Program-made: the position numbers and the translations under genes
In this document: positions 1 through 14,551 of the stretch, one piece after another
How positions within the stretch are numbered: position 1 is the first letter of the stretch
How the letters are laid out: every line of letters starts with the position of its first letter
Notes under the pieces: model-generated
The model's database searches: none
What the model was told of the DNA's origin: nothing
The model's input: the letters and a program-made list of their open reading frames with translations, nothing else
Assembly: GCA_037442925.1 (NCBI GenBank)
Contig: JBBIPG010000059.1
Location: 1-14,551 of the forward strand
DNA length: 14,551 nt
Origin: Candidatus Fraserbacteria bacterium
GTDB lineage: Bacteria; Bipolaricaulota; Bipolaricaulia; RBG-16-55-9
Direction of reading: 5' to 3'

Positions 1-2
1 AG

Positions 3-614
3 CGGGTAGCCACGTGCTTGCGAGCACTCTTCTCTGGGGACGGCACCATCTATACGTCCGGTGAGGGCTTTCACTTAGAATACAGCACCATCTCGGAACG
101 ACTGGCCTATGATGTGCGCCATCTTCTCCTGCGGTTTGGCCTCTTTGCCCTGGTGCGAAGTAAGCCCACCTGGAATGGCAAGCGGGTGTATTGGCTGCAG
201 ATCACGGATCGGGATATGATCCGCCGCTTCGCTCAAGAGATCGGGTTTATCCCAGACAGCCGCAAGCAAAGGACGCTGGAGGAGATCCTTCCCAGGCTAG
301 GTGCTTCGCTGAAATCGAATTTTGACACGCTACCCCAAGAGACTTGGGGATGGTTGAGGGACCTTGTGCACGCATCGGGTCGCTCCCTGCAAGCTGTGGG
401 AATCCGCGGCACGAAACCAAGTCAATCGCTACCCTATGCCCTCGCCCGGCGAGCTGCTCAAGTAGTGGACCATCCAGACTTCTCCGCCGTGGTGGATGCC
501 GACGTGGTCTGGGATACTGTGGACTCAATAAGACCAGCAGGAGTGGAAAGAGTATATGATCTCACTGTGCCGGGGGTACACAACTTCCTGGCGAATGATT
601 TCATAGTTCACAAT
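3..614 (+). mobile_element. Intein with LAGLIDADG homing endonuclease in dcd (N-terminal part outside the window)
   Basis: Block E-like [10 protein letters not shown], block H-like [14 protein letters not shown], block [16 protein letters not shown], block G IVHN (CAC AAT 609-614), then +1 Ser (TCA 615-617). Confidence 0.93.
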
Positions 615-851
615 TCAACCTACGCCCGCTGTGGTATTATTGTGAACATAACGCCCGCCGAACCGGAATGGGAAGGACAGCTGGTCATCGAGATTTCGAA
701 CACGTCACCCTTGCCCGCAAAGATCTATGCCAAAGAGGGAATTGCACAGATGATCTTCCTCGAAGCAGAAGAAGTCTGCGAGACCTCGTACGCGGACAAG
801 AAGGGTAAGTACCAGAAACAAATCGGGATCGTCACCTCCAAAGTCAGCTGA
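3..851 (+). CDS. dcd: dCTP deaminase, 3' part, intein-containing precursor (5'-truncated by the window edge; C-extein 615-851)
   Basis: Frame is open from base 3 ([14 protein letters not shown]...), so the track start at 18 is internal. After the intein end (IVHN) it reads [48 protein letters not shown]...[12 protein letters not shown], the typical C-terminal half of the GKSTYARCG-type dCTP deaminase. Stop TGA 849-851. Confidence 0.93.
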
Positions 852-2559: not shown

Positions 2560-3590
2560 AACCCGCTACACAACAAGCTACGCCGCAGCAACCCCTTCGG
2601 ATGTTTCAGCTCTTGGCCGGAACGAATGTCGACTTTATGGGCAAGCGCGTCTGGGCGTTTCTCTTCTCCACCATTCTCGTCGCCCTGGGAATCTTGGCGG
2701 CCGTTCAGATCTTCATCACGGGCCAAGCCAACTTAGGCATCGAGTTCACGGGTGGAACTTCTGTCACGCTGGAGTTTAAAGAGACCGTCTCCTTGGAGGA
2801 GGCTCGGTCTCTGCTCGCGAGGAATGGCTTTGTGAATCCACAGATTACGGATTCCAGAGAGCCTGGAAAGCACAAGCTCATCGTGCGCGTGAAAGAGGGC
2901 ACGACCAGTGATGAGGCAGTCGTCGAGACCTCGGATCGAATTAAGCAGCTCTTTGCTGAAGCCTTCCCGGAGAATGAGATTCTTGGGACCAGTAGCACCT
3001 CCATCGGACCCGTGATCGGCCAGGAGCTGCGCCAGAAGGCCGTCTGGGCCATCCTCTATGCGCTTCTGGGCATCATCGTCTACATCGCGTTTCGCTTCGA
3101 CTGGAAGTTCGGAGTGGCCGCGACCATTGCGACCTTCCACGATGTGCTGGCCGTGCTAGGGATCGTCTGGCTCAAGAACTTCCTCTGGCCTACGGAGATC
3201 ACACTGCTCATCATGACGGCCATCCTCACCATCGCGGGGTATTCTCTCACGGACACCGTGGTGGTCTTCGACCGCATCCGCGAGAACTTGAGGAAGCGCC
3301 AGCGAGTGCCTCTGAGACAGCTCATCAATGACTCGGTCAACCAGGTGCTTAGCCGCACCATCATCACATCGCTCACGGTTCTGCTGGTGGTCGTAGCCAT
3401 CTTCTTCTTGGGGGGTGAGGTGCTCCGCGACTTTGCCTTCGCTCTCATCATCGGAGTCGTGGTGGGTACTTATTCATCAATCTTCATCGCCAGCGCTCTG
3501 CTGCTCCTCTGGCAGGGTGGGCGGGGGAAACTCCTGGCGCAAGCCGTGACGGACCGCAAGCCACGTGCCGAGTCCGTCAAGAGTCGGTAG
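2556..3590 (+). CDS. secF: Protein translocase subunit SecF
   Basis: 344 aa; LGIEFTGG, IGPVIGQEL, FHDV, GYSLTDTVVVFDRIREN, GTYSSIFIA motifs; ATGA overlap with secD stop. Confidence 0.97.
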   Translation: MKPATQQATPQQPLRMFQLLAGTNVDFMGKRVWAFLFSTILVALGILAAVQIFITGQANLGIEFTGGTSVTLEFKETVSLEEARSLLARNGFVNPQITDSREPGKHKLIVRVKEGTTSDEAVVETSDRIKQLFAEAFPENEILGTSSTSIGPVIGQELRQKAVWAILYALLGIIVYIAFRFDWKFGVAATIATFHDVLAVLGIVWLKNFLWPTEITLLIMTAILTIAGYSLTDTVVVFDRIRENLRKRQRVPLRQLINDSVNQVLSRTIITSLTVLLVVVAIFFLGGEVLRDFAFALIIGVVVGTYSSIFIASALLLLWQGGRGKLLAQAVTDRKPRAESVKSR

Positions 3591-4670: not shown

Positions 4671-5012
4671 TTAAGCTCGTTTGCCATTGCTGAAGAGCGC
4701 GTTCAAAAAGTAGATGAGCCCCATCCCGATAGCTGTGCCCAACATGACCCCTTCGAGACGCTGCTGGCCAGCGAATCGTTGTTGGGTGTAGCCACAGTGG
4801 GGACAACGCAGATACTCGTTCTCTTTCTCGGTCTTGAACGGCTCCAATTTGGCCTTGCAGATTGGGCAACTCTGAGGCTCCAACACCTCTGTGGGAATCT
4901 TGCCGATGCCTTTCTTCATCAAGGCTAGCTCGACCTCTTTGGCGTTCTCGTAGACCCAAAGCGGCACCTTGATCGTCTTGTAGGCTTCTACGTCCTTCGC
5001 CAGCGCTTCCAT
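4671..5012 (-). CDS. Hypothetical protein with C4 zinc ribbon, possible ribbon-helix-helix-like N-terminus and hydrophobic C-terminal helix
   Basis: 113 aa; CPIC-x17-CPHC; N-terminal YKTIKVPLWVYENAKE; C-terminal VMLGTAIGMGLIYFLNALF; AGGA upstream of the ATG and a dedicated consensus promoter. Confidence 0.8.
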   Translation of the reverse strand: MEALAKDVEAYKTIKVPLWVYENAKEVELALMKKGIGKIPTEVLEPQSCPICKAKLEPFKTEKENEYLRCPHCGYTQQRFAGQQRLEGVMLGTAIGMGLIYFLNALFSNGKRA

Positions 5013-5161: not shown

Positions 5162-6640
5162 TTACGAGTTCCCCTTAAGTTGCTGCAGAAAGCGTCGGAC
5201 CTGTCGATCGTAAGAGCTGAAGGGATCGTCGAAGACGAGAGCGCGCTTGGCACCCACCGTGATTCCATCCCACTCGATGAGATAGTCCTTCACGGGAAGA
5301 GACCGCAGAGCCTGGATGACGTGAGCGCGTGCATGTGCGCGGGTATTGGCCGGACCTTCATAGAGAGCGCCTTCCACCGCCTCGTCATCGATCAAGCGTT
5401 GGACTTCTCCCGTCTGTTCCAGGGCATAGTAGAGCCCCTGCTCCGGATTGATGTTGTGATATTCAAGATCCAGACTGTGTAGTGCGGGGTCGTCCCAGGG
5501 CAGCCCTTCGGCTTGGCGGTAGAGTTCGATCAGGCGATATTTTGCCACCCAATCCAGACGGTCGGCCAGCTTCATGGGGTCGCTTTCCAGTTCGTCGAGC
5601 ACCGACTCCCAGTTCTCAAGGAGTCGATCGGTCTCCTCATCGCGACCCCGGAAGCGCTGGGCACTCTCCAGATAGCGGCGCTGCAGATCCACCGCGCGAA
5701 TCGTGCGCCCGTCCTCCAGACGCGCCAGCCAGAGTCGGGTGGGGTCGCGCGAGATCTCCCGCAGGCTCCGTATGGGGTGAGCCAGCTCCAGGTCCCGCGG
5801 CACGGCTTGCTCCTCGATGGTGTCCAGCACGAGCGCAGTCGTACCCACTTTGAGGCACGTTGCGTACTCGGACATGTTGGATTCGCCAAACAAGACATGG
5901 AGACGCGGGGCATGGGAAGCGTCCTGAAAACTATCCCACTTGGGGTTGATCAACGCTCGACTGAAGCGAACGCGTCCCGAAGCTACATACAGTATGTGAT
6001 CGGCCCGCTGGGAGAGCTGGAAAGCGACACTGGTGTCCGGCTCCACACCGTAAATCTGGTCCAGAAATGCGTAATCCGCTCGGTGGCGGCTGAGATCGCG
6101 CACCATACGCCGAGGATCGCTGGTTAAGCGATGGCCGCCCACGCGGCCTGCCCCAGCGAAGATCTGGCGGGTCACGAGAAAGGGGATCAGCGGAGCCAGA
6201 TCCCGGCCATAGGGATGGGTGTGCGGGTCGAGCGAATAATTCTCATGGCAACCGAAGGTGTGGCCGCCGTAGTGGTCAATGTTGTTGTTGTGGAAGCTGG
6301 CGCGCTCGGTCCAACCCAACTCTTGGAGGAGCTGTACGAGCAAGCGTGGACCGGCTCTGTTGTAGGCAACGAGATCATGGAGGGAGCGACATTCGGGGGT
6401 GGCGTACTCGAGGTGGCCTCCCACAACGTCAATGTAAAGACGTCCACCGTTGATGAGGAATCCGCCTGCTTCGGCAGGCTCGAAGAAGGCGTCGCGTGCA
6501 TGACGGTCGATCAGTCCCCAGCGTCCGCCGCGAAATGCCTGATCCTTGACGCGCTCGACGATCTCCTCTGCTGTGCCCGCGGCCGGGTCGCGTGCGAGGC
6601 AGCCAAATTCCGTCTCAATACCGACGATTCGTCTCATCAC
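5162..6640 (-). CDS. pafA: PafA-family (Pup/UBact)-protein ligase
   Basis: 492 aa; RRIVGIETEFG, FLINGGRLYIDVVGGHLEYATPEC, FGCHENY, FLVTRQIFAGAG, SQRADH, RLHVLFGESNMSE, LDWVAK, DLEYH; lacks the Dop loop; last gene of the operon as in actinobacterial loci. Start is GTG 6640 or ATG 6637. Confidence 0.88.
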   Translation of the reverse strand: MMRRIVGIETEFGCLARDPAAGTAEEIVERVKDQAFRGGRWGLIDRHARDAFFEPAEAGGFLINGGRLYIDVVGGHLEYATPECRSLHDLVAYNRAGPRLLVQLLQELGWTERASFHNNNIDHYGGHTFGCHENYSLDPHTHPYGRDLAPLIPFLVTRQIFAGAGRVGGHRLTSDPRRMVRDLSRHRADYAFLDQIYGVEPDTSVAFQLSQRADHILYVASGRVRFSRALINPKWDSFQDASHAPRLHVLFGESNMSEYATCLKVGTTALVLDTIEEQAVPRDLELAHPIRSLREISRDPTRLWLARLEDGRTIRAVDLQRRYLESAQRFRGRDEETDRLLENWESVLDELESDPMKLADRLDWVAKYRLIELYRQAEGLPWDDPALHSLDLEYHNINPEQGLYYALEQTGEVQRLIDDEAVEGALYEGPANTRAHARAHVIQALRSLPVKDYLIEWDGITVGAKRALVFDDPFSSYDRQVRRFLQQLKGNS

Positions 6641-7446
6641 GGCAGAAAGCGTGCCAGCTCTTCGTCGCTCATCAACCGGAGTCTTCGCTCTCGCTTGGCG
6701 TCGCGCTCCAGCAAGGCGGCCTCAACTGCCCCTTCCTCAAGTTCTTTGCTCCAGATCTCTTGAGTCTCTCGCGGGGAAGGCAGCGCTTCCACACCCGACT
6801 CTGCTTTGCCTCTCTGACTCGGCTCGAGAATGCCTGCTTGGAGTGCCCAACTTCCGATGGCCCAGGCATCTATCGCCCTCTGCAAGGCCGCCTCCAGCGG
6901 GAGTGAGGAGGCATCTTTTGATTTGCGTTGGGGGGTTCGCTCGCTGAGTGTGTGCTTCATTCGTTGTTCCGCAAATTCCGTGCCGGCCGCGACTGCATGG
7001 TGGTGATGCAGCATGAATTCCCCATCGTAGTTGAGGGTGAAGAAGAGATCGTCCTCGGGGCGATCACCCACTTGTACAAAGAGCCCCTTAAGCACCAGAG
7101 GTGTGCGAAATGGGTCGGCGAAGGAACGCTTGAGCACCGGGCTGATCGCCAGCCCGACGACCCGCTGTATCGAGACGTCATCGGGGCTTCGCTGATAGCC
7201 TTCGGCATGGGCGAAATCCACGGCGAGCTGGCGAACCGTCTCGAGATCCGAAGGGTTCCCGAGCCCCGAGAAAGCCAGCCGATCATAGATCTCGAAGATC
7301 TTGCGCTGGGTACGCCGGGTGGTGAGCAGCAGGGCGCCGGTCTCGCAACTGAGTCCGACCACGGGGCTTCCTGCACGCAGGCGGTCTTCTACGTAATCGG
7401 CCTTCTGTCGTAATGTCTGTTGCCAATCGTAGGGTGTATAGGCCAT
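6637..7446 (-). CDS. prcA: 20S proteasome subunit alpha
   Basis: 269 aa; GSPVVGL, RKIFEIYDRLAFSGLG, GYQRSPDDVS, YDG, AAGT, VEAALLER, matching bacterial PrcA; follows prcB. Confidence 0.92.
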   Translation of the reverse strand: MAYTPYDWQQTLRQKADYVEDRLRAGSPVVGLSCETGALLLTTRRTQRKIFEIYDRLAFSGLGNPSDLETVRQLAVDFAHAEGYQRSPDDVSIQRVVGLAISPVLKRSFADPFRTPLVLKGLFVQVGDRPEDDLFFTLNYDGEFMLHHHHAVAAGTEFAEQRMKHTLSERTPQRKSKDASSLPLEAALQRAIDAWAIGSWALQAGILEPSQRGKAESGVEALPSPRETQEIWSKELEEGAVEAALLERDAKRERRLRLMSDEELARFLP

Positions 7447-7451
7447 AGGGA

Positions 7452-8228
7452 TTAGCTCTCAGAACGCAACTCGCGTTGGAGTTTTCGAAGCGTCTCTTCC
7501 GGTACATCGGCGATGCCCTGAGAAGTGATCGTCTTGGCGAGCGGCAGAACGCCTCCCAATCCCGCCGTAGCCGGGTCCAAGCTGGCAGCGATATCGAGCA
7601 AGAGCAGCGCTTCTCGTAAGACATCACTCAACGGCATCTCGTGCAAGGGTCCGCGCGTGCGGACGATATACTCAAATGCTCCACGAATCTTCTCGGCTCC
7701 GGAGCCGGCTGCCCCATACTCTCGACTCTCGAAACGAGCCCCGAGCACATCGTAAAAGAAGATCCGGCCCTGGTTCTTCGCGCGATCGTGGGCACTCACA
7801 ATGGGCAGAAAGCCTCCGATGCCCTGCAGCACGCTGGGAACACTCTGGGAGAGCACGCGCGACACTTCCGCGAGCTTGCCCTCGAGGCTCATGTCCTGCA
7901 ATTGACTGCGGGCGTAATACTTGAACGAGTGCCGTAGGAATCGGGCTGCTTCCGCGGCCGGTGCGTAAGAGCCTGCAATGGCAATCAGGGTGTATTCATC
8001 GAGCATGAGGATCTTCTCGGCCTCATCGTAGAGGATGCCGGTGGCAGCGGTGGCCCTGCGGTCAGCGACATTGAGGATCCCTTGATCGTACTTGAGGGCG
8101 ATCACCGTAGTACCATGAGCTGCCGAAAGTGTTTCCGCGGAGCCCGCTGGCACGTTGAACAGAGACACGCCCGCCTGTTGCAGTAAGCGAGAGAAATCCC
8201 CCTGGAACCGCTGTCGCTCCATGTTCAT
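7452..8228 (-). CDS. prcB: 20S proteasome subunit beta precursor (about 39-aa propeptide; Thr1 codon 8111-8109)
   Basis: 258 aa; HG|TTVIALKY autoprocessing site; counting from Thr1, Asp17 (ADRRAT) and Lys33 (EKI) are at canonical positions; AAGSG and DPATAG motifs. Confidence 0.95.
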   Translation of the reverse strand: MNMERQRFQGDFSRLLQQAGVSLFNVPAGSAETLSAAHGTTVIALKYDQGILNVADRRATAATGILYDEAEKILMLDEYTLIAIAGSYAPAAEAARFLRHSFKYYARSQLQDMSLEGKLAEVSRVLSQSVPSVLQGIGGFLPIVSAHDRAKNQGRIFFYDVLGARFESREYGAAGSGAEKIRGAFEYIVRTRGPLHEMPLSDVLREALLLLDIAASLDPATAGLGGVLPLAKTITSQGIADVPEETLRKLQRELRSES

Positions 8229-8407
8229 TCTCCGCTGCGCTGGCGGTAGCGACGCGCTTGGCGCGGGTCAACTCGTTTCATGCGTTCCAGCAGTTCCCGC
8301 GTGGTGGGCCGCTCGACATCCGGTGCGCGTGGGCCACCCTCATCCCCGCCGTCGTTCGGCTTGGTCCAGGGTTGATCTGTGATCGGCTGGGTCTTGCGCT
8401 CAGGCAC
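8225..8407 (-). CDS. ubact: UBact, prokaryotic ubiquitin-like tag protein (60 aa)
   Basis: MPERKTQPITDQPWTKPNDGGDEGGPRAPDVERPTTRELLERMKRVDPRQARRYRQRSGE; sits in the pup position between dop and prcB; C-terminal R[ST]G[EQ] plus LLxRM++VDP..A++YRQR is the UBact pattern rather than Pup's FVxxYVQKGG[EQ]. Start moved from 8416 to GTG 8407 because AGGAGG (8421-8416) lies 8 nt upstream of it. Confidence 0.92.
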   Translation of the reverse strand: MPERKTQPITDQPWTKPNDGGDEGGPRAPDVERPTTRELLERMKRVDPRQARRYRQRSGE

Positions 8408-8412
8408 TCTGG

Positions 8413-9930
8413 TCACCTCCTCGCTTGCATCTCAGCGATTGATTCTACCACATCTTCGAAGCTGGCGTCGGCTGGCATCTCTTTGAGAGGCTCTAGCTCG
8501 CCATTCACGGCGTGACGCAGATCCAGCTTGACCATTCTCCTTCGGTGCTTTACAGTGAGTTGCCCCCAGCTTGCGGACTTCACATCAAAGCGGCTCAAGC
8601 AGAGTTCCCGTAGATAAGCTCGTGTGTTGCGCGGCGCAGAATATTTCGCTTCTTCCACTTGTGCATCACTCGTAAGGCGTTGCATTGAACCCTGACGCTG
8701 TAACGAAAAGAACAGCCCGCGCTCGGGGTCGAGGTGGTGATACTCCAGCTCTAGGCTACGCAGCTGATCCAGATCCTCATGCCAGTTCCGGTTCTCATCT
8801 TCCAGAAAAGATTCCAACAAATCCCGTTTGGCAACCCAATCGAGGCGATCGCGCAAGCGCCGCGGGTCTTCCTCCAGATCGTTGAGTACGACCGCCCACT
8901 CGCGAAGTAACCAGTCCGTTTCGTCATCTCTACCGGCAAAGAGCTCTTGTGCCGCGAGTTGATAGGCCCGTTGAATATCTAGAGCCGGCATGGTCTTGTC
9001 ATCACTTAGCGTAACCAGCCAGCGGCAGGTCGAGTCCTGCGAGATCTGTCGGATGGCCTCAATGGGATCTTTGAGTTCTACGGGTGCGCCGTAGCCCGCT
9101 TCCAGGGTCCCGAGCACGAGTGCCGTCGTTCCGAGCTTGAGAGCCGTGGCGTACTCGCTCAGATTGGCATCGCCGCAGATGAGATGCAGTCGTCTCCACA
9201 GGCGACGATCGGCGTGCGGCTCGTCTCGCGTATTGATCAGGGGTCGGTGGTGGAGGGTATCCACGCTGGCAATCTCATCGAAAAAATCGGCCCGTTGCGA
9301 GAGTTGATAGAACAGATGGTCACTCTTGTCAGCAGGGCCTTCCACACCCACCTTCCCCGCTCCGGCGTACAGAATTCGCGTAACGAGAAAGGGCAGCAGT
9401 CCACTCAAGAGATGGTCGAACGGTAGATCGCGGCGCACCAAGTAATTCTCATGGCAGCCGTAACTGATGCCGTGATAGTCGGTATTGTTTTTATACACGG
9501 CTACAGCTCGTCCCGTGCGCTGATGATAGCGTTGCGCTGCTTCCCACACGATTCGCTCGCCTGCGCGATCGTGAGCGAGCAAATCCCATAGGCTCAGGCA
9601 TTCCGGCGTGCTGTATTCCGGATGGCCGTGATCGTGATAGAAGCGTGCTCCGTTGGTGAGCACTCGATCCACGTGCTCTTCATGGGGGGTTCGGGGCTGG
9701 GGCGTGCGTGATCGGGAGATCTGCTCGTAATGATCGTCCGTGGGATTCGTCTTTAAGTGAGGGGCGCGGAAACCGCGCAGATCCTGGAGTGGACTCTCTT
9801 GCTCGTAATCCCAGGGCACACCCGCAGGTCCACTCTGGACGACTTGGCGAGCTTCTGCCATGAGATCCACAACATCGATGCGGTCTACCCATAGACCGTA
9901 TTCGGTCTCCAGTCCCGTTAGGCGATCCAT
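8413..9930 (-). CDS. dop: Dop-family deamidase/depupylase (505 aa)
   Basis: MDRLTGLETEYG, Dop loop WDYEQESPLQDLRGF, VLTNGARFYHDHGHPEYSTPEC, YKNNTDYHGISYGCHENY, SQRADFF, LINTRDEPHAD..RRLHLICGDAN. Start set at ATG 9930, 10 nt after the arc stop; the track's extra 53 codons largely overlap arc. Confidence 0.9.
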   Translation of the reverse strand: MDRLTGLETEYGLWVDRIDVVDLMAEARQVVQSGPAGVPWDYEQESPLQDLRGFRAPHLKTNPTDDHYEQISRSRTPQPRTPHEEHVDRVLTNGARFYHDHGHPEYSTPECLSLWDLLAHDRAGERIVWEAAQRYHQRTGRAVAVYKNNTDYHGISYGCHENYLVRRDLPFDHLLSGLLPFLVTRILYAGAGKVGVEGPADKSDHLFYQLSQRADFFDEIASVDTLHHRPLINTRDEPHADRRLWRRLHLICGDANLSEYATALKLGTTALVLGTLEAGYGAPVELKDPIEAIRQISQDSTCRWLVTLSDDKTMPALDIQRAYQLAAQELFAGRDDETDWLLREWAVVLNDLEEDPRRLRDRLDWVAKRDLLESFLEDENRNWHEDLDQLRSLELEYHHLDPERGLFFSLQRQGSMQRLTSDAQVEEAKYSAPRNTRAYLRELCLSRFDVKSASWGQLTVKHRRRMVKLDLRHAVNGELEPLKEMPADASFEDVVESIAEMQARR

Positions 9931-9940
9931 GGGCGTGGGA

Positions 9941-12900
9941 TCATACGACGGATTCGATGGGGAAGCGGCGGTCGCCCTCGCGGATCGGGCGAACTTCCAT
10001 GACATCCTCCGCTTCGAAGTCGATGAGCTTGAGCCAGTCTTCCAGATAGTCCGTCTTGGGGAAGATCTCGTTCTCGTGATACTCTGCACGCAGGGCCTCT
10101 TGGAGATCCTCTAAGCGGATGCCCTCGTTCGCGTTCTTTCGACCGATGCAGCGTTGGATAGCGAAGTCCTTGGCCCTTTCCACAGCGGACATGAGGAGAG
10201 CGCCGCTCACCAGATCGCTCCAGTAGAGCGTTTCGCGTCGGCCGCTGCGCAAGTGCACCTCCAAAAAAGCGGTCTCTGGGCTCCTACGGAAGAGATAATC
10301 GGCAGCCTGCTCGATCAAGGCGCTGCGAGCTTTGTCCGGATTGTCGTCATGCTCCTTGACCCATGTGGGGTCAAGAGGCACGCGTTCGTTCAAATAGATC
10401 CTGAGAATATCGGCAGACGCTCGGCGGTCCGGTCGGCCGATCTTCACTTTTCTGTCGATGCGCTCGGGTCTTAGAATGGCCGGGTCAATGTAATCGGGGC
10501 GATTGGAGGTGAGCATGACCACTACATTTTCGAGATCGACGAGGCCATCCATCTCCGCGGCAAACTGGGGGACGACGGTATTAGCGATATTGAGATAACG
10601 CCCGCTGCTGCGCACGCGCAGTAGCGAATCCGCCTCGTCGATGAAGACGAAGACGAGATGGCCCTCCTTGGCCCGCTCGCGGGCCAAGGAGAAGATCTCG
10701 CGCACCATGCGCTCGGTCTCCCCCAGCCACATGTTGAGAAGCTGCGGCCCGTTGATGAACATGAAGTACTCTCTCACATCTTGGCCCAGTCGCTCTTTAT
10801 AAGACTGAGTGAGGTTGTAGGCTGTGGCTTTGGCGATGAGCGTATTGTGGGTGATGATCCCTCCTAGCCCCCCAATGAAGGTATGGGTGTCCGCCACAGT
10901 CAAGTCATACACGTAACCATCGGCTCTCTTCTTCGTGATTGAGACAACTCGATCCCAGAGGATATCGGATTGGCAGAGTCGGCTCAACACTGCTATGGTG
11001 GCTGTGTCCGGTTTGGCCTCGAGGATCTCCCCGAGTTTCCGTCGGCTCAGGATTTTTCGACCCTCGTAGTTGTGCTTGGTCTGATAGAACTGCTCTTTAT
11101 TCTGCCTCACCTCAGTCCTTGCCCGGCTTAAGAGGTCTTGAATATTGGGGAGGATGTCGACATTAGTGATCTCTTTTCTGTCGGGGGCGGTCCATTTCTC
11201 CAGTCTCCGATTCTTCTCATCACTGAAGAAACCGATCTGCTTCTGGAAGGTTCTCAAATGGCTAGCTCCACTGATGTAGAGCCGGTAATAGGTGTGGTCG
11301 TTGGTCCGGACCCTCTTCTCCCTGATCCGGGCCGCAATGCCGAACCTCAGTAAGAGATAGGTCAATTTGCTGGCAAACTTCGGGCTGGCGGTGGTCAGTT
11401 CGATCTCGGGGACATCCTTTCGTACTGTAGCCTCGCTTTCGAAGACGGCCCGCAAGAAACGGGCGACGATGCTCTGAGGAGAGCGCATAAGGGAATCCGG
11501 CACATCGGTAGCTCTCGAGTTAACCAGATCGAAATCGAAGGCCTGTTTGAGCCATCTCAACAAGGAGACGGAGTTCATCATCACTTTATAGACTTTATCT
11601 GACGTATCAGGCTTGATCATCGGCTCTAGGCCGAAGGTCTCGCGAGAGAGCGTAGCGACTCGTTCGATAAGTCTCAGGTCTGAATTATGGAAATTGAGGC
11701 CTCCTGCGGATCGGCTGCCTTCGCTCAGAAGGAATCCGAAGCATTCGGCGAGATCGCCGTTTACATCTTGGAAGAATTTCACGGGCCGCGTGTGGGGGTG
11801 ATTCGGGGAGATCCAACGCAGGGTCCCATTGCCCTCAACGGCAAAACCGGCAGTCGCTTTGGAAGGGACGTGGAATTCCTCGTGCTTCGTGCGTATCCTC
11901 CTCGGCACAGCGATGAAATCCCCGAGCTTTATATCAGCTACCCGAACTTTGTTGATCCCTTGATTCAGCACTAGGAAGGGATGCTCTGGAGTCACCGTGA
12001 TCTTCCGGCCGGAGTGGGTCGTGACCTCGTAGAGGTCGCCTTGATACCTTTCCCTGTAAACGAAATCCACTTTCTTGGGGACGATTTGCAGGCTGTCAGG
12101 ATCGAGCGTCAAGACTTCTAGGCTGTTTGGTTCGATGATCGATTCCCCGCCATCGTCTTTGAGAGTGGTGCCCGCGAGTCGGGATTCTTCAAAGAGCTTA
12201 TCAATCGGTTCCACGCGGCCGTCGGCCAAGAGAATGGGAGTATCCCCTGCAACACATTTGCCACACCCCGGTGGTCCATATAAAAGAATCCCCTTGAGTT
12301 GCCGCTTGCCGAATCTCTTATAGAGATCTGGGTAGAGCAAGGGGCGCTCGATGGTGTCCCGAATGAGCTGGATGGCCTCCTCTTGACCGCCCACTTGCTC
12401 CCAGGAGATATCCGGGATCTGTTCCAGATAGTAGCCTCGGACCTCGGACTTTTGGAAATGCTCGAGCGCTACACGCAAGGAGGGCTCCAGACGGACTTCG
12501 TCACCGGGCTTAAGAGCCGTCTTCTCCAGATCCGATGAGCGCAGGAGGATGCGCCCCGAGAGCTGATGACCGTCGACGGAAACCCTCAAGCGCCCGTCGG
12601 GCAGGATTTCTGACACTTTGACGATTGGGCCTTCCGGGTGATACCCCAGATCGCCGATGACCGTAAAGGCTTCGTTGACTTTGATGCGCGTGCCGACTTT
12701 GATTGTCTTGAGGTTCAGCTTCGGGTCCACATTGGCGTAATATTCCGCATCACCCACGGCGATATAGGCGATGCCGTCTGTGGGAGAGCCCAAGTACGTC
12801 CCAATGCGGTTGGCCGGAGAGGTGAGCTTCTGGTAGACCTCCTCGAACTGAGCGATGGCCTGGCGAGCCTCTTCCAGCTGGTGCTCGTCCACCTGAAGTT

Positions 12901-13060
12901 GGTAATCGAGCAGTTCGAGTAGTTCAAGGCGAGCGTCATCTTGGGGAGTGCGTGCCAAGATCTCCGCTAAGAGGGCGCGCGCGCGGATCTGCGTCTCAAA
13001 CTGGAAGTCACCGGGGTTGCGCTCTGGGCGCGGCTGTTTGGGTTCCTTGCGACTCGCCAT
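9941..13060 (-). CDS. arc: Proteasome-associated AAA+ ATPase (ARC/Mpa family), intein-containing precursor (1039 aa; 568 aa spliced)
   Basis: N-terminal coiled coil ending KLTSPANRIG, two OB-type segments, PDISWEQVGG, Walker A GILLYGPPGCGK|TLIAKA reconstituted on intein removal, pore loop NMWLGETER, Walker B VFIDEAD, SRH SNRPDYIDPAILRPERIDRK, VSGA and ENEIFP motifs. GAGGTGG lies 5 nt upstream of ATG 13060 and overlaps the track's GTG at 13069. Confidence 0.93.
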   Translation of the reverse strand: MASRKEPKQPRPERNPGDFQFETQIRARALLAEILARTPQDDARLELLELLDYQLQVDEHQLEEARQAIAQFEEVYQKLTSPANRIGTYLGSPTDGIAYIAVGDAEYYANVDPKLNLKTIKVGTRIKVNEAFTVIGDLGYHPEGPIVKVSEILPDGRLRVSVDGHQLSGRILLRSSDLEKTALKPGDEVRLEPSLRVALEHFQKSEVRGYYLEQIPDISWEQVGGQEEAIQLIRDTIERPLLYPDLYKRFGKRQLKGILLYGPPGCGKCVAGDTPILLADGRVEPIDKLFEESRLAGTTLKDDGGESIIEPNSLEVLTLDPDSLQIVPKKVDFVYRERYQGDLYEVTTHSGRKITVTPEHPFLVLNQGINKVRVADIKLGDFIAVPRRIRTKHEEFHVPSKATAGFAVEGNGTLRWISPNHPHTRPVKFFQDVNGDLAECFGFLLSEGSRSAGGLNFHNSDLRLIERVATLSRETFGLEPMIKPDTSDKVYKVMMNSVSLLRWLKQAFDFDLVNSRATDVPDSLMRSPQSIVARFLRAVFESEATVRKDVPEIELTTASPKFASKLTYLLLRFGIAARIREKRVRTNDHTYYRLYISGASHLRTFQKQIGFFSDEKNRRLEKWTAPDRKEITNVDILPNIQDLLSRARTEVRQNKEQFYQTKHNYEGRKILSRRKLGEILEAKPDTATIAVLSRLCQSDILWDRVVSITKKRADGYVYDLTVADTHTFIGGLGGIITHNTLIAKATAYNLTQSYKERLGQDVREYFMFINGPQLLNMWLGETERMVREIFSLARERAKEGHLVFVFIDEADSLLRVRSSGRYLNIANTVVPQFAAEMDGLVDLENVVVMLTSNRPDYIDPAILRPERIDRKVKIGRPDRRASADILRIYLNERVPLDPTWVKEHDDNPDKARSALIEQAADYLFRRSPETAFLEVHLRSGRRETLYWSDLVSGALLMSAVERAKDFAIQRCIGRKNANEGIRLEDLQEALRAEYHENEIFPKTDYLEDWLKLIDFEAEDVMEVRPIREGDRRFPIESVV
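10844..12256 (-). mobile_element. 471-aa intein with LAGLIDADG homing endonuclease in the Walker A motif of ARC
   Basis: Block A CVAGDTPILLADG (Cys1 codon 12256-12254), block B GRKITVTPEHPFL, block C LAECFGFLLSEG, block E FLRAVFESEA, block H LTYLLLRFGI, block F VYDLTVADTHTFIG, block G ITHN (Asn codon 10846-10844), +1 Thr. 1413 nt = 471 codons. Confidence 0.96.
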
Positions 13061-13228
13061 CGGTTCCACCTCACGACCTTTTCGGAGTATGAGCCTCTCC
13101 GGCTCAGTCCAATAACGTTAGCGCGAATCGTCTCTCGATGCAAGGAGATCGCATGGAGACACGTGTCTTTTCCGGAAGTGTAATGTGCGTCGCTGGCAAC
13201 CGACCCTTGTCCGGCGTATAAGGATCAC

Positions 13229-14551
13229 ATGAGAAAAGAAAAAGGCTGGAGGGCCATTCTTGTATTCATTGTATTCATTGGTATTGTGGCGAGTCTGCCT
13301 CAAGGCATCTGGGTAGGCATGGATAGCGCTCTGGCGAGCGAAGGCGTGCATGCCCAATTGGCCGAGAGCCTCCCCCTGATCGGCGTCGATCGGGTCCATC
13401 AAGAGTTGCGCATCAACGGGCTGCGCGTGGGCATTCTCATCATGGACGATTGGACCATCAACGAGAATGGCTATGCGCACGGACAAGCGGTGGCTGACAT
13501 CGTGAGGGCTGTGGCTCCTGGTGCGCGTATCTGGTCCTGCAAGCTGATGTTCTTCGCCCGGATTTCACAGCAAGACTTTGCCGACTGCTTGCTAAAAATC
13601 GTGCGCGAGCGCTTGCCGGTTCGCGTGGTGAACATGAGTTTTGCCGTCGGCGAAGAGATCTTTGATCGGCCGTGTGATTCTCTCGATGACCCGCTCACCC
13701 GTGCCATCCGTCTACTTCGCCAGAAGGGCGTGATCTTTGTTGCTGCTGCGGGCAACGATGGGCGGAAGAACGCACTGCGCTACCCGGCGTGTCTGCCTGA
13801 AGTGATCTCTGTGGGAGCGACGTACGATCTTGCTGGGTCCGTGCAGTTCGACAATGACCAAGTCTTCTGTCGAGATATGGCTGTGATCGATAACGTCACG
13901 TGTTACTCGAATGTCGCGGATTTCCTCGACCTCGTCGCTCCGGGGACCACGATCAGTACGCCCACGGCGTCCAATTTTGGCGGCACCTCCGCGGCCGCAC
14001 CCATTGTGACCGGAGTGATCGCTCTCATGCTGGGAGCCGATCCTTCCTTGCCGCAACGCGCGATTCTCGAGAACCTACGAACCACGGCCGTTCTTGTGCG
14101 CGATCCCAGATCTTCTCAATCCTTCCCGCGCGTGGACGCCTATCGAGCCGTGCGGGCCGTACTGGCAGCACGGCAGACTCCGTCCGCAACCGCTTCCTCT
14201 CACGCGCTTGCCGACTTTGACACCAATGGTGACGGCGTCATTGACGACTCGGAGTACTATGCCGCCCTGGAGGCGTGGATCGCCGGCCAGATCAGCGATG
14301 AGCTCTTCTTTGACGTGACGGACTATTGGGTACGAGGGGCGCGCGTACGCGCAACCGACGCGAAATTCTCATCTGAAAACACAGAGAAGTTCCAGCTCTA
14401 CGATCTGCAAGGGCGGGAGATTGCGCATCTGGATGGGGCCTCTTCCGGGGAGCTTCGTGCTCTGGTGCGCACGCTCGCCAATGGAGTCTACGTCTATGTA
14501 GCGACTCGAACTGTGCAAGGCAAAACAGTTCGTTCCATGGGGAAGATCGTG
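13229..14551 (+). CDS. Secreted subtilisin-like S8 serine peptidase with EF-hand/dockerin-like motif and C-terminal sorting-like domain (3'-truncated, at least 441 aa)
   Basis: Hand-translated; absent from the ORF track because there is no stop in the window. MRKEKGWRAILVFIVFIGIVA signal/anchor; GILIMDD (Asp), AHGQAVADIV (His), VVNMSF, FVAAAGNDG (oxyanion Asn), YPACLPEVISVGA, DLVAPG, GGTSAAAPIVTG (Ser); DTNGDGVIDDSE; QLYDLQGR...LANGVYVYV. Confidence 0.9.
   Translation, partial: MRKEKGWRAILVFIVFIGIVASLPQGIWVGMDSALASEGVHAQLAESLPLIGVDRVHQELRINGLRVGILIMDDWTINENGYAHGQAVADIVRAVAPGARIWSCKLMFFARISQQDFADCLLKIVRERLPVRVVNMSFAVGEEIFDRPCDSLDDPLTRAIRLLRQKGVIFVAAAGNDGRKNALRYPACLPEVISVGATYDLAGSVQFDNDQVFCRDMAVIDNVTCYSNVADFLDLVAPGTTISTPTASNFGGTSAAAPIVTGVIALMLGADPSLPQRAILENLRTTAVLVRDPRSSQSFPRVDAYRAVRAVLAARQTPSATASSHALADFDTNGDGVIDDSEYYAALEAWIAGQISDELFFDVTDYWVRGARVRATDAKFSSENTEKFQLYDLQGREIAHLDGASSGELRALVRTLANGVYVYVATRTVQGKTVRSMGKIV

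Follow-up and report, generated by a model that had tools for sequence, protein, structure and literature searches.

Why does the ATPase of a bacterial proteasome carry an intein inside its Walker A motif? Could the C-G-K-C at the resulting junction hint at a splicing step gated by oxidation, or did a selfish element happen to land beside a cysteine? Both questions are raised by the window studied here, the whole stretch of 14,551 nucleotides that we analysed from Candidatus Fraserbacteria bacterium (phylum Bipolaricaulota). A first-pass annotation of this DNA had read a 471-aa intein between the P-loop Lys and Thr of the proteasomal ATPase ARC. It took the CxxC at the junction as a possible redox control on the degradation of UBact-tagged proteins, with a purely selfish insertion as the default. 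We set out to place the intein among its relatives and to weigh these readings against each other.

The host gene heads an operon of the order arc-dop-ubact-prcB-prcA-pafA, in which ARC is accompanied by a modifier, a ligase, Dop and the 20S subunits:

9941-13069, minus strand: ORF of ARC/Mpa with its intein, 1042 aa
12257..13060, minus strand: ARC/Mpa N-extein, with N-terminal helix, two OB domains (12455-12808) and Walker A up to Lys271; likely start ATG at 13060
9941..10843, minus strand: ARC/Mpa C-extein, with Thr+1 (10841-10843), Walker B (10628-10648) and the second region of homology (10454-10507)
8413..9930, minus strand: Dop-like depupylase/deamidase (TIGR03688, 430 bits, under the cut-off of 492)
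8225..8416, minus strand: UBact modifier, 63 aa (PF20513 and NF033388, over cut-off)
7452..8228, minus strand: 20S proteasome beta subunit (Pfam/NCBIfam profile search)
6637..7446, minus strand: 20S proteasome alpha subunit (NCBIfam profile search)
5162..6640, minus strand: PafA-like ligase (TIGR03686, 319 bits, under the cut-off of 551)

ARC consists of tandem OB domains and a single AAA domain (PF17758, PF16450 and PF00004, all over cut-off), and the best solved-structure match of an intein-less relative, P0389, is Mpa (E 1e-99). TIGR03689 is its best family by profile score, yet the protein falls short of this actinobacterial equivalog, scoring 417.6 bits against a curated cut-off of 504.75; the intein-less relative reaches 436.7. 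The gene order is that of UBact operons (PF20513, NF033388) and the Walker A context that of actinobacterial Mpa/ARC (PDB 7ljf, 7px9). The locus differs from both in the intein within arc and in the absence of a C-terminal GQYL, which we take to be the docking motif of actinobacterial Mpa; ARC ends in PIESVV instead. Judged from homology, UBact would tag proteins for the ARC proteasome. The 2.07-Mb genome (94% complete) holds a single copy of ARC, and its only other AAA match carries motifs that we presume to be FtsH-like. A scan upstream of arc found no promoter and one terminator-like site, at chance level, and no RNA data set is listed as containing the locus. The genome also encodes two heme-copper oxidase subunits I, superoxide dismutase and acetyl-CoA synthase, as well as a thioredoxin-reductase-like protein with a score under cut-off.

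The intein itself can be described as follows (here and below, a slash marks an extein-intein boundary or the insertion point):

10844..12256, minus strand: class 1 intein, 471 aa, from Cys1 to His470-Asn471 (profiles, model, empty alleles)
12254..12265, minus strand: N-junction C-G-K/C, with extein Cys269 (position -3; 12263-12265) and intein Cys1 (12254-12256)
11981..11992, minus strand: block B, T89-P-E-H92 (TxxH)
11222..11761, minus strand: LAGLIDADG (DOD) homing endonuclease, about intein residues 166-345, its borders approximate and set by hand
11720-11722 and 11432-11434, minus strand: acidic residues of the endonuclease, E179 and E275 respectively
11585..11728, minus strand: 48 codons (intein residues 177-224, with E179) missing through an in-frame deletion from P0500, a near-identical protein
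10844..10906, minus strand: blocks F and G, with D451, H458 and His470-Asn471

Read on the minus strand, 10844-12256 is a stop-free translation of 471 aa in frame within the ARC ORF. It enters at GPPGCGK/C and leaves at HN/T, between Walker A Lys271 and Thr743, and shows the class 1 hallmarks Cys1, TxxH, block F Asp, His-Asn and Thr+1. Pfam Intein_splicing (PF14890) matches with 106.5 bits (cut-off 35.8) and LAGLIDADG_3 with 82.8 bits (cut-off 22.5), and the NCBIfam models of intein N- and C-termini both score over cut-off. An AlphaFold model of the intein with short flanks, computed from a 19-row alignment, has a mean pLDDT of 85.7; its best Foldseek match is the TliVMA intein 7qss (E 8.5e-34), and it also matches the inteins PI-PfuI and PI-PkoII. 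The borders are fixed because empty alleles read across the site directly: 26 relatives run GPPGCGK/TLI or THI without an intein, and DNA from sequencing run X5, about 91% identical to the window (325 differences in 3752 nt), is shorter there by a net 1413 nt, exactly 471 codons. Profiles, fold and empty alleles thus agree with the placement first proposed, and the C-G-K-C junction and the 24-nt empty-site junction given with it prove correct when set against the empty alleles.

Within the endonuclease we recognise two LAGLIDADG-type helices with the acidic residues E179 and E275. The second motif ends in E-A instead of D-G, as does that of the mobile allele in genome G105. Of the columns conserved in the family, the window's endonuclease keeps 53 of 55 and that of G105 53 of 54. 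The two are 63% identical while only 20 of 60 fourfold sites agree, which points to purifying selection; the sequence suggests that the window's endonuclease was probably functional until recently.

From the position of the intein, the P-loop would be rebuilt only by splicing, as the first-pass annotation had held. ARC activity very likely depends on it, because in RadA a P-loop intein is reported to block the ATPase until it is spliced (PMC6195587); the same would apply to any intein so placed, and it does not amount to regulation.

Might the gene be a chimera of assembly, in which an archaeal intein-bearing ATPase was joined to a bacterial ARC gene? Every carrier comes from a metagenome assembly and the closest relatives of the intein are archaeal, as such an error would predict. 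An artefact is unlikely, however: run X1, possibly the source of the assembly, covers the whole locus, runs X2 and X3 (probably one data set deposited twice) contain pieces of the intein, and the separate NCBI protein P0500 has both junctions. The junctions are precise and in frame in four separate proteins (P0003, P0004, P0005 and P0500), the base composition of the intein tracks that of its host (GC3 0.66 here, 0.94-0.95 in genomes G102 and G105), and identity to any archaeal copy is at most 50%. The idea of a chimera is largely refuted already, and we regard its probability as negligible.

How widespread is the intein among ARC genes? ARC is present in 29 of the 184 Bipolaricaulota genomes searched, and only three of these, members of a single family, carry the intein: the window's genome, G102 and G105. 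At the remaining 26 loci LYGPPGCGK runs straight into Thr. On an extein tree (FastTree, 59 rows) the sister of every carrier is intein-less, and so are the nearest relatives of the window's ARC, P0389 (96.0% identical) and P0390 (96.7%). Within these genomes, the search for Hint domains and empty alleles that had been suggested produced empty loci in number, 26 of them, and other ARC inteins in G102 and G105 only. A search for long ARC-like proteins, of 701-2000 aa, scored 8000 candidates and was blind to mini-inteins below about 130 aa; among the 120 best of its 4648 matches, intein domains occur only in P0003-P0005; eight other long ARC rows with OB domains have no intein domain. DNA pattern scans (at least 81, at least 82 and 6 stretches), which detect only Cys1 inteins at the YGPPGCGK motif and include some non-intein matches, place ARC matches only in Bipolaricaulota, among the matches listed. 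The other hosts in these scans, labelled RuvB, DnaA, Vps4-like and TPR-AAA class 2, were assigned by motif and are to be taken as presumptive. Pfam intein matches number 11, 8 and 10 in the carrier genomes; three intein-less relatives have 3, 2 and 0. The window's genome has 10 inteins across 9 genes; others among them sit in SufB, in acetyl-CoA synthase and in the beta subunit of a 2-oxoacid:ferredoxin oxidoreductase (PorB), where the junction reads C-P-G/C.

Outside ARC, the best matches are inteins of archaeal TPR-AAA ATPases (Micrarchaeota where the carrier is named) and of CDC48-D2, all inserted at YGPPGCGK/T. In comparisons with eight archaeal carriers, identity is 44-50% for the intein and 33-39% for the AAA core; a ninth, P0016, shows the reverse, 36% for the intein and 41% for the core. 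All 23 distinct occupied sites read xYGPPGCGK/TxxxKA with every third codon position varying, a shared motif that protein conservation alone could also produce. In an intein tree of 20 rows (20 of 35 were kept, near-duplicates and some outgroups being left out for the AU test set) the ARC inteins form a single clade (99/99) that groups (96/95) with ten TPR-AAA inteins and one CDC48 intein as its sister. The base of the tree, with three CDC48 inteins and one LonB intein on long branches, does not resolve; a quick tree of the Hint part likewise left one fork open, and archaeal monophyly was not rejected (AU test, p = 0.15). The LonB intein, P0163, lies at Walker A and is distantly related to the ARC intein, and most CDC48 inteins that we encountered occupy other sites. 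The archaeal family also contains mini-inteins of 166-197 aa. Around a Micrarchaeota carrier we sampled 301 genomes, of which 50 have the TPR-AAA gene and 3, the seed included, an intein-sized frame; of 30 TPR-AAA loci examined, 2 are occupied, 1 is truncated and 27 are empty, with an identical motif in all 27. Sequence comparison thus gives good support to an intein family that jumped between AAA gene families and across domains. That it moved from archaea to bacteria is no more than a suggestion, which comes from the greater diversity on the archaeal side.

Evidence for recent movement comes from G102 and G105, members of two genera. In DNA, their inteins agree at 98.8% over 376 codons and their C-exteins at 83.5%, while G101, a congener of G102 with a C-extein 98.3% identical at the amino acid level, is intein-less. 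In the 270 nt that lead up to the junction, 10 positions separate G102 from G105 and 37 separate it from G101; farther away the pattern flips on balance, in gap-free windows that become unreliable past about 540 nt. The shared flank of about 270 nt amounts to co-conversion of the kind that endonuclease-driven homing leaves. This applies to the allele of G102 and G105, as the window's allele has no known donor. The G102 assembly is fragmented, with the intein split between two contigs, and may be chimeric there, although P0004, from a separate assembly, has the same allele whole.

Other alleles seem to record the later life of the element. P0500, which clusters with the window's protein at 90%, lacks intein residues 177-224 including E179; of the seven other differences between the two, six lie inside the intein. 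By sequence this is a decaying copy that has lost its first endonuclease motif in a near-identical strain. At the empty site of run X5, the 26 nt leading to the junction contain 9 differences from the window (counted by hand), against 8.7% elsewhere, an excess with a binomial p of 2e-4 in a region picked after inspection. One of these changes replaces the Tyr at -8 with Phe, the residue that P0389 has too; Phe is also found in eight more distant ARCs. Such a site could possibly have escaped the endonuclease, which we offer as a lead only. In the window's own lineage, the intein is only 60% identical to that of G105 and has a host-like GC3 (0.66, with 0.69 and 0.74 in the exteins), which suggests old residence; repeated precise loss and repeated gain are indistinguishable there.

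Is an intein of this kind new? In fold and position it resembles Walker A class 1 inteins with endonucleases (TliVMA 7qss, PI-PfuI 1dq3, PI-PkoII 2cw7; the MCM-a, RFC, RadA and DnaB-b sites), with which it shares Cys1, TxxH, His-Asn and Thr+1, a Hint and LAGLIDADG fold and insertion right after the P-loop Lys. It differs from them in its host, a bacterial proteasomal ATPase, and is about 25% identical to the best solved intein. P-loops are listed as intein hot spots in a 2016 census (PMC4760082), which names archaeal LonB (10) and Cdc48 (2) and bacterial ClpA (1) and ClpB (1), likewise AAA+ motors of protein turnover, and further PorB, SufB, dCTP deaminase and RuvB; the proteasomal ATPase ARC/Mpa is absent from the main-text passages and supplementary file 2 as searched. 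Among the papers listed by a search of largely open full-text literature, none is on an intein in ARC/Mpa, PAN or Bipolaricaulota. The novelty first claimed stands to this extent: no catalogued ARC intein was found, and ARC/Mpa is, against the literature and census as searched, a previously unrecorded host and insertion site of a known type of element. A close precedent for its movement is Anaeramoeba, for which intein transfer between paralogues and between the P-loops of different proteins is described (PMC10710043). There, related inteins occupy the Walker A motifs of different proteins within one eukaryotic genome, as far as that account goes; here they do so in archaeal and bacterial genomes and in three classical AAA families, and alleles that are empty, newly homed or decayed can all be compared. 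By its sequences, the family is a prokaryotic, cross-domain case of intein movement that tracks a motif.

What, then, of the CxxC? If it were a gate, a Cys269-Cys272 disulfide would trap the ARC precursor under oxidation, UBact-linked degradation would wait for reduction, and the host would retain the intein for this service. In favour of this, Cys522 of p97, presumably the same Walker A cysteine as Cys(-3) of ARC, argues that such a thiol can react, as this residue of the D2 ATP pocket is reported to be glutathionylated under oxidative stress (PMC5389986). The spacing equals that of the Cys-3/Cys1 disulfide described for the MoaA intein of P. abyssi and of an engineered trap (PMC3922620, PMC10663303). 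The host is likely facultative and, because it encodes oxidases, superoxide dismutase and acetyl-CoA synthase, likely meets redox shifts. Cys(-3) is found at 23 of 23 occupied sites, which would fit selection for the CxxC too, and the same genome has the C-P-G/C intein in its PorB-type subunit besides those of SufB and acetyl-CoA synthase. Against this, Cys(-3) is older than the intein. It is present without any intein in 26 of 26 empty ARC alleles, in 119 of 120 intein-less homologues and in 27 of 27 TPR-AAA loci that are empty. The solved Mpa of mycobacteria has it in an identical Walker A context, in line with the remark of the first-pass annotation that GCGK is normal in Mpa-type Walker A motifs. 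To read the CxxC as an indication of redox control is thus not supported. Since the cysteine precedes the intein, any Cys1 intein landing at the ARC site forms a CxxC. Walker A inteins at large do not appear to require it: the RuvB-type matches have Leu or Val at -3 in 29 of 29, and in a second Micrarchaeota TPR-AAA paralogue with a different Walker A intein family the residue is C in 15, N in 11, V in 3 and T in 1 (n=30). For CDC48, a background frequency of Cys(-3) was discarded, as the pool had been gathered with a Cys-bearing query. As signs of selection we had looked for a Cys(-3) tied to the intein or an intein fixed in a lineage, and found neither. The model is silent on the Cys(-3)/Cys1 geometry because its pLDDT drops below 50 at construct residues 19-21, the junction itself.

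The resemblance to MoaA, too, is confined to the spacing of an extein Cys(-3) and an intein Cys1: MoaA is an O2-labile protein with a demonstrated disulfide (PMC3922620, PMC10663303), whereas ARC has a Gly-Lys P-loop spacer, a Cys fixed in intein-less homologues, and a case built from sequence. To shut off an unfoldase under oxidative stress, while damaged proteins accumulate, would be hard to rationalise, unlike the protection of an O2-labile enzyme. The intein is absent from 26 of 29 genomes and from the two nearest relatives, and an endonuclease that is intact here and recently mobile in relatives explains persistence without any benefit to the host; patchy, recently mobile and decaying, the element looks unlike a domesticated switch. 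The redox reading of the CxxC is thus weakly supported, and we consider a retained gate improbable. The same holds for its widest form, a portable thiol switch whose family tracks YGPPGCGK in ARC, CDC48-D2 and TPR-AAA: in a facultative acetogen, the Cys269-Cys272 disulfide would hold ARC unspliced under oxygen, unspliced subunits would block hexamers, and the UBact-proteasome would be gated together with the PorB, SufB and acetyl-CoA synthase inteins. This, too, we rate as unlikely. A review of 2014 states that a physiological role of conditional splicing was not yet demonstrated (PMC4031507), and one of 2023 still awaits a demonstrated fitness benefit (PMC10663303). Could the intein instead be a relic, an old possession of the family's ancestor that was inherited vertically, mostly lost, and is now immobile in the window's lineage and kept since precise loss is rare? 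The restriction of all three carriers to one family, the single clade of ARC inteins, the 60% identity between the window's intein and that of G105 with fourfold sites saturated, and the broken endonuclease of the sister strain would all suit such a history. Yet it requires many precise losses, as each carrier has empty sisters, it is at odds with the recent transfer between G102 and G105, and the window's endonuclease matches the mobile one of G105 in its degree of conservation (53/55 against 53/54), with purifying selection indicated. We regard it as very unlikely.

The reading we prefer, and hold with considerable confidence on comparative grounds, is that the ARC intein is a selfish homing element with a predicted constitutive self-splicing that would restore GKT; the default of the first-pass annotation is the one that the patchy, mobile and decaying pattern favours. 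Its endonuclease would recognise DNA encoding YGPPGCGK/TxxxKA with third codon positions free. Because ARC, CDC48-D2 and the Micrarchaeota TPR-AAA ATPases have the same motif, the element could hop between these paralogous genes and across domains. It probably entered Bipolaricaulota from an archaeal pool and would then have homed between genera. The CxxC would be a by-product of insertion at a site with a previously fixed Cys. In vitro, splicing may be blocked by oxidants, as with other Cys1 inteins, without any evolved control.

The routes by which inteins reach new genes are still being worked out. Here one endonuclease family, with a nine-residue motif, spans three AAA families and two domains, and since public data contain empty, newly homed and decayed alleles and possibly resistant ones, homing across paralogues and domains becomes directly testable. 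The bacterial proteasomal ATPase joins the hosts of inteins, and its natural C-G-K/C junction provides a test case for adaptive versus accidental Cys(-3)/Cys1 traps. If the redox gate were true after all, it would be a post-translational switch over an entire proteolytic pathway.

The window carries a second intein, in a dCTP deaminase gene, and two further genes flanking the proteasomal region.

1-614, forward strand: C-terminal part (HN|S; the bar marks the splice junction) of a LAGLIDADG intein in the dCTP deaminase gene, from profile searches
615-851, forward strand: C-extein of dCTP deaminase, adjoining the intein
4671-5012, reverse strand: 113-aa protein, 3' of pafA, bearing two CxxC pairs and, at its C terminus, a hydrophobic stretch
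13229-14551, forward strand: subtilase-family protease, divergently encoded and cut by the contig end, from profile searches

The contig end cuts off the N-terminal side of the dCTP deaminase intein, leaving only its C-terminal part on the window. In the material drawn on here from the 2016 intein census, dCTP deaminase appears as an intein host in one archaeon (PMC4760082). The sole profile match of the 113-aa protein in a Pfam search was rubredoxin-like and weak. Within the ARC intein, two codons of the window differ from sequencing runs X1-X3 at positions 11793 (Asn152 versus Tyr) and 11803 (His155 versus Arg); these differences may reflect either strain variation or assembly error.

Which other ATPases are interrupted at the Walker A motif? 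RuvB-type proteins, presumptively so labeled from a sequence motif, carry inteins there at no fewer than 29 genome loci (L055-L135), in Chloroflexota, Abditibacteriota, Thiomargarita and Bacteroidota. A second intein family of about 360 aa, unrelated to the ARC type, occupies the Walker A motif of another Micrarchaeota AAA paralogue at 30 or more genome loci (L058-L131), where position -3 is C, N, V or T. Among the matches listed are 167-aa mini-inteins at FGPPGCGK|T of an ATPase that we take, again from a sequence motif, to be Vps4/CdvC-like (L130 and L149, one of them from Odinarchaeota), and intein-like inserts at Walker A in Armatimonadota proteins that a motif presumptively marks as DnaA-type (L057, L064, L094 and L166, with the match near 3001). 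The matches listed also include CDC48-like proteins of viral and metagenome contigs (L051, L142, L143, L145, L177), which hold unrelated inteins at Walker A, one protein in both ATPase domains. A separate protein, P0276, is ARC-like, 894 aa long and has two AAA domains in tandem. The census material drawn on here includes two RuvB inteins, and a text search of its supplementary file 2 for "DnaA" gave no matches (PMC4760082).

The window's own genome, G000, holds 10 inteins in 9 genes. Besides those in V-ATPase A, RtcB, SufB (two), DnaB and MutS (contigs C6, C7, C29, C33 and C67), they include:

G000:C2:49079-52693 (L011/L222), forward strand: intein in acetyl-CoA synthase, inserted directly N-terminal to the C-G-C motif
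G000:C24:18156-20291 (L221:3157-5292), reverse strand: 2-oxoacid:ferredoxin oxidoreductase beta subunit interrupted by a 388-aa intein, junctions W-C-P-G|C...HN|C-G-D

Of the 26 matching genomes in the phylum, 13 have the oxidoreductase intein at full length (L253-L265); there is one broken copy besides. The intein's N-terminal junction, C-P-G-C, is thioredoxin-like. This intein would be a better candidate than the ARC intein for a redox trap, in which a Cys(-3)/Cys1 disulfide holds the precursor unspliced, though the Cys of its C-P-G|C junction is also found in empty alleles.
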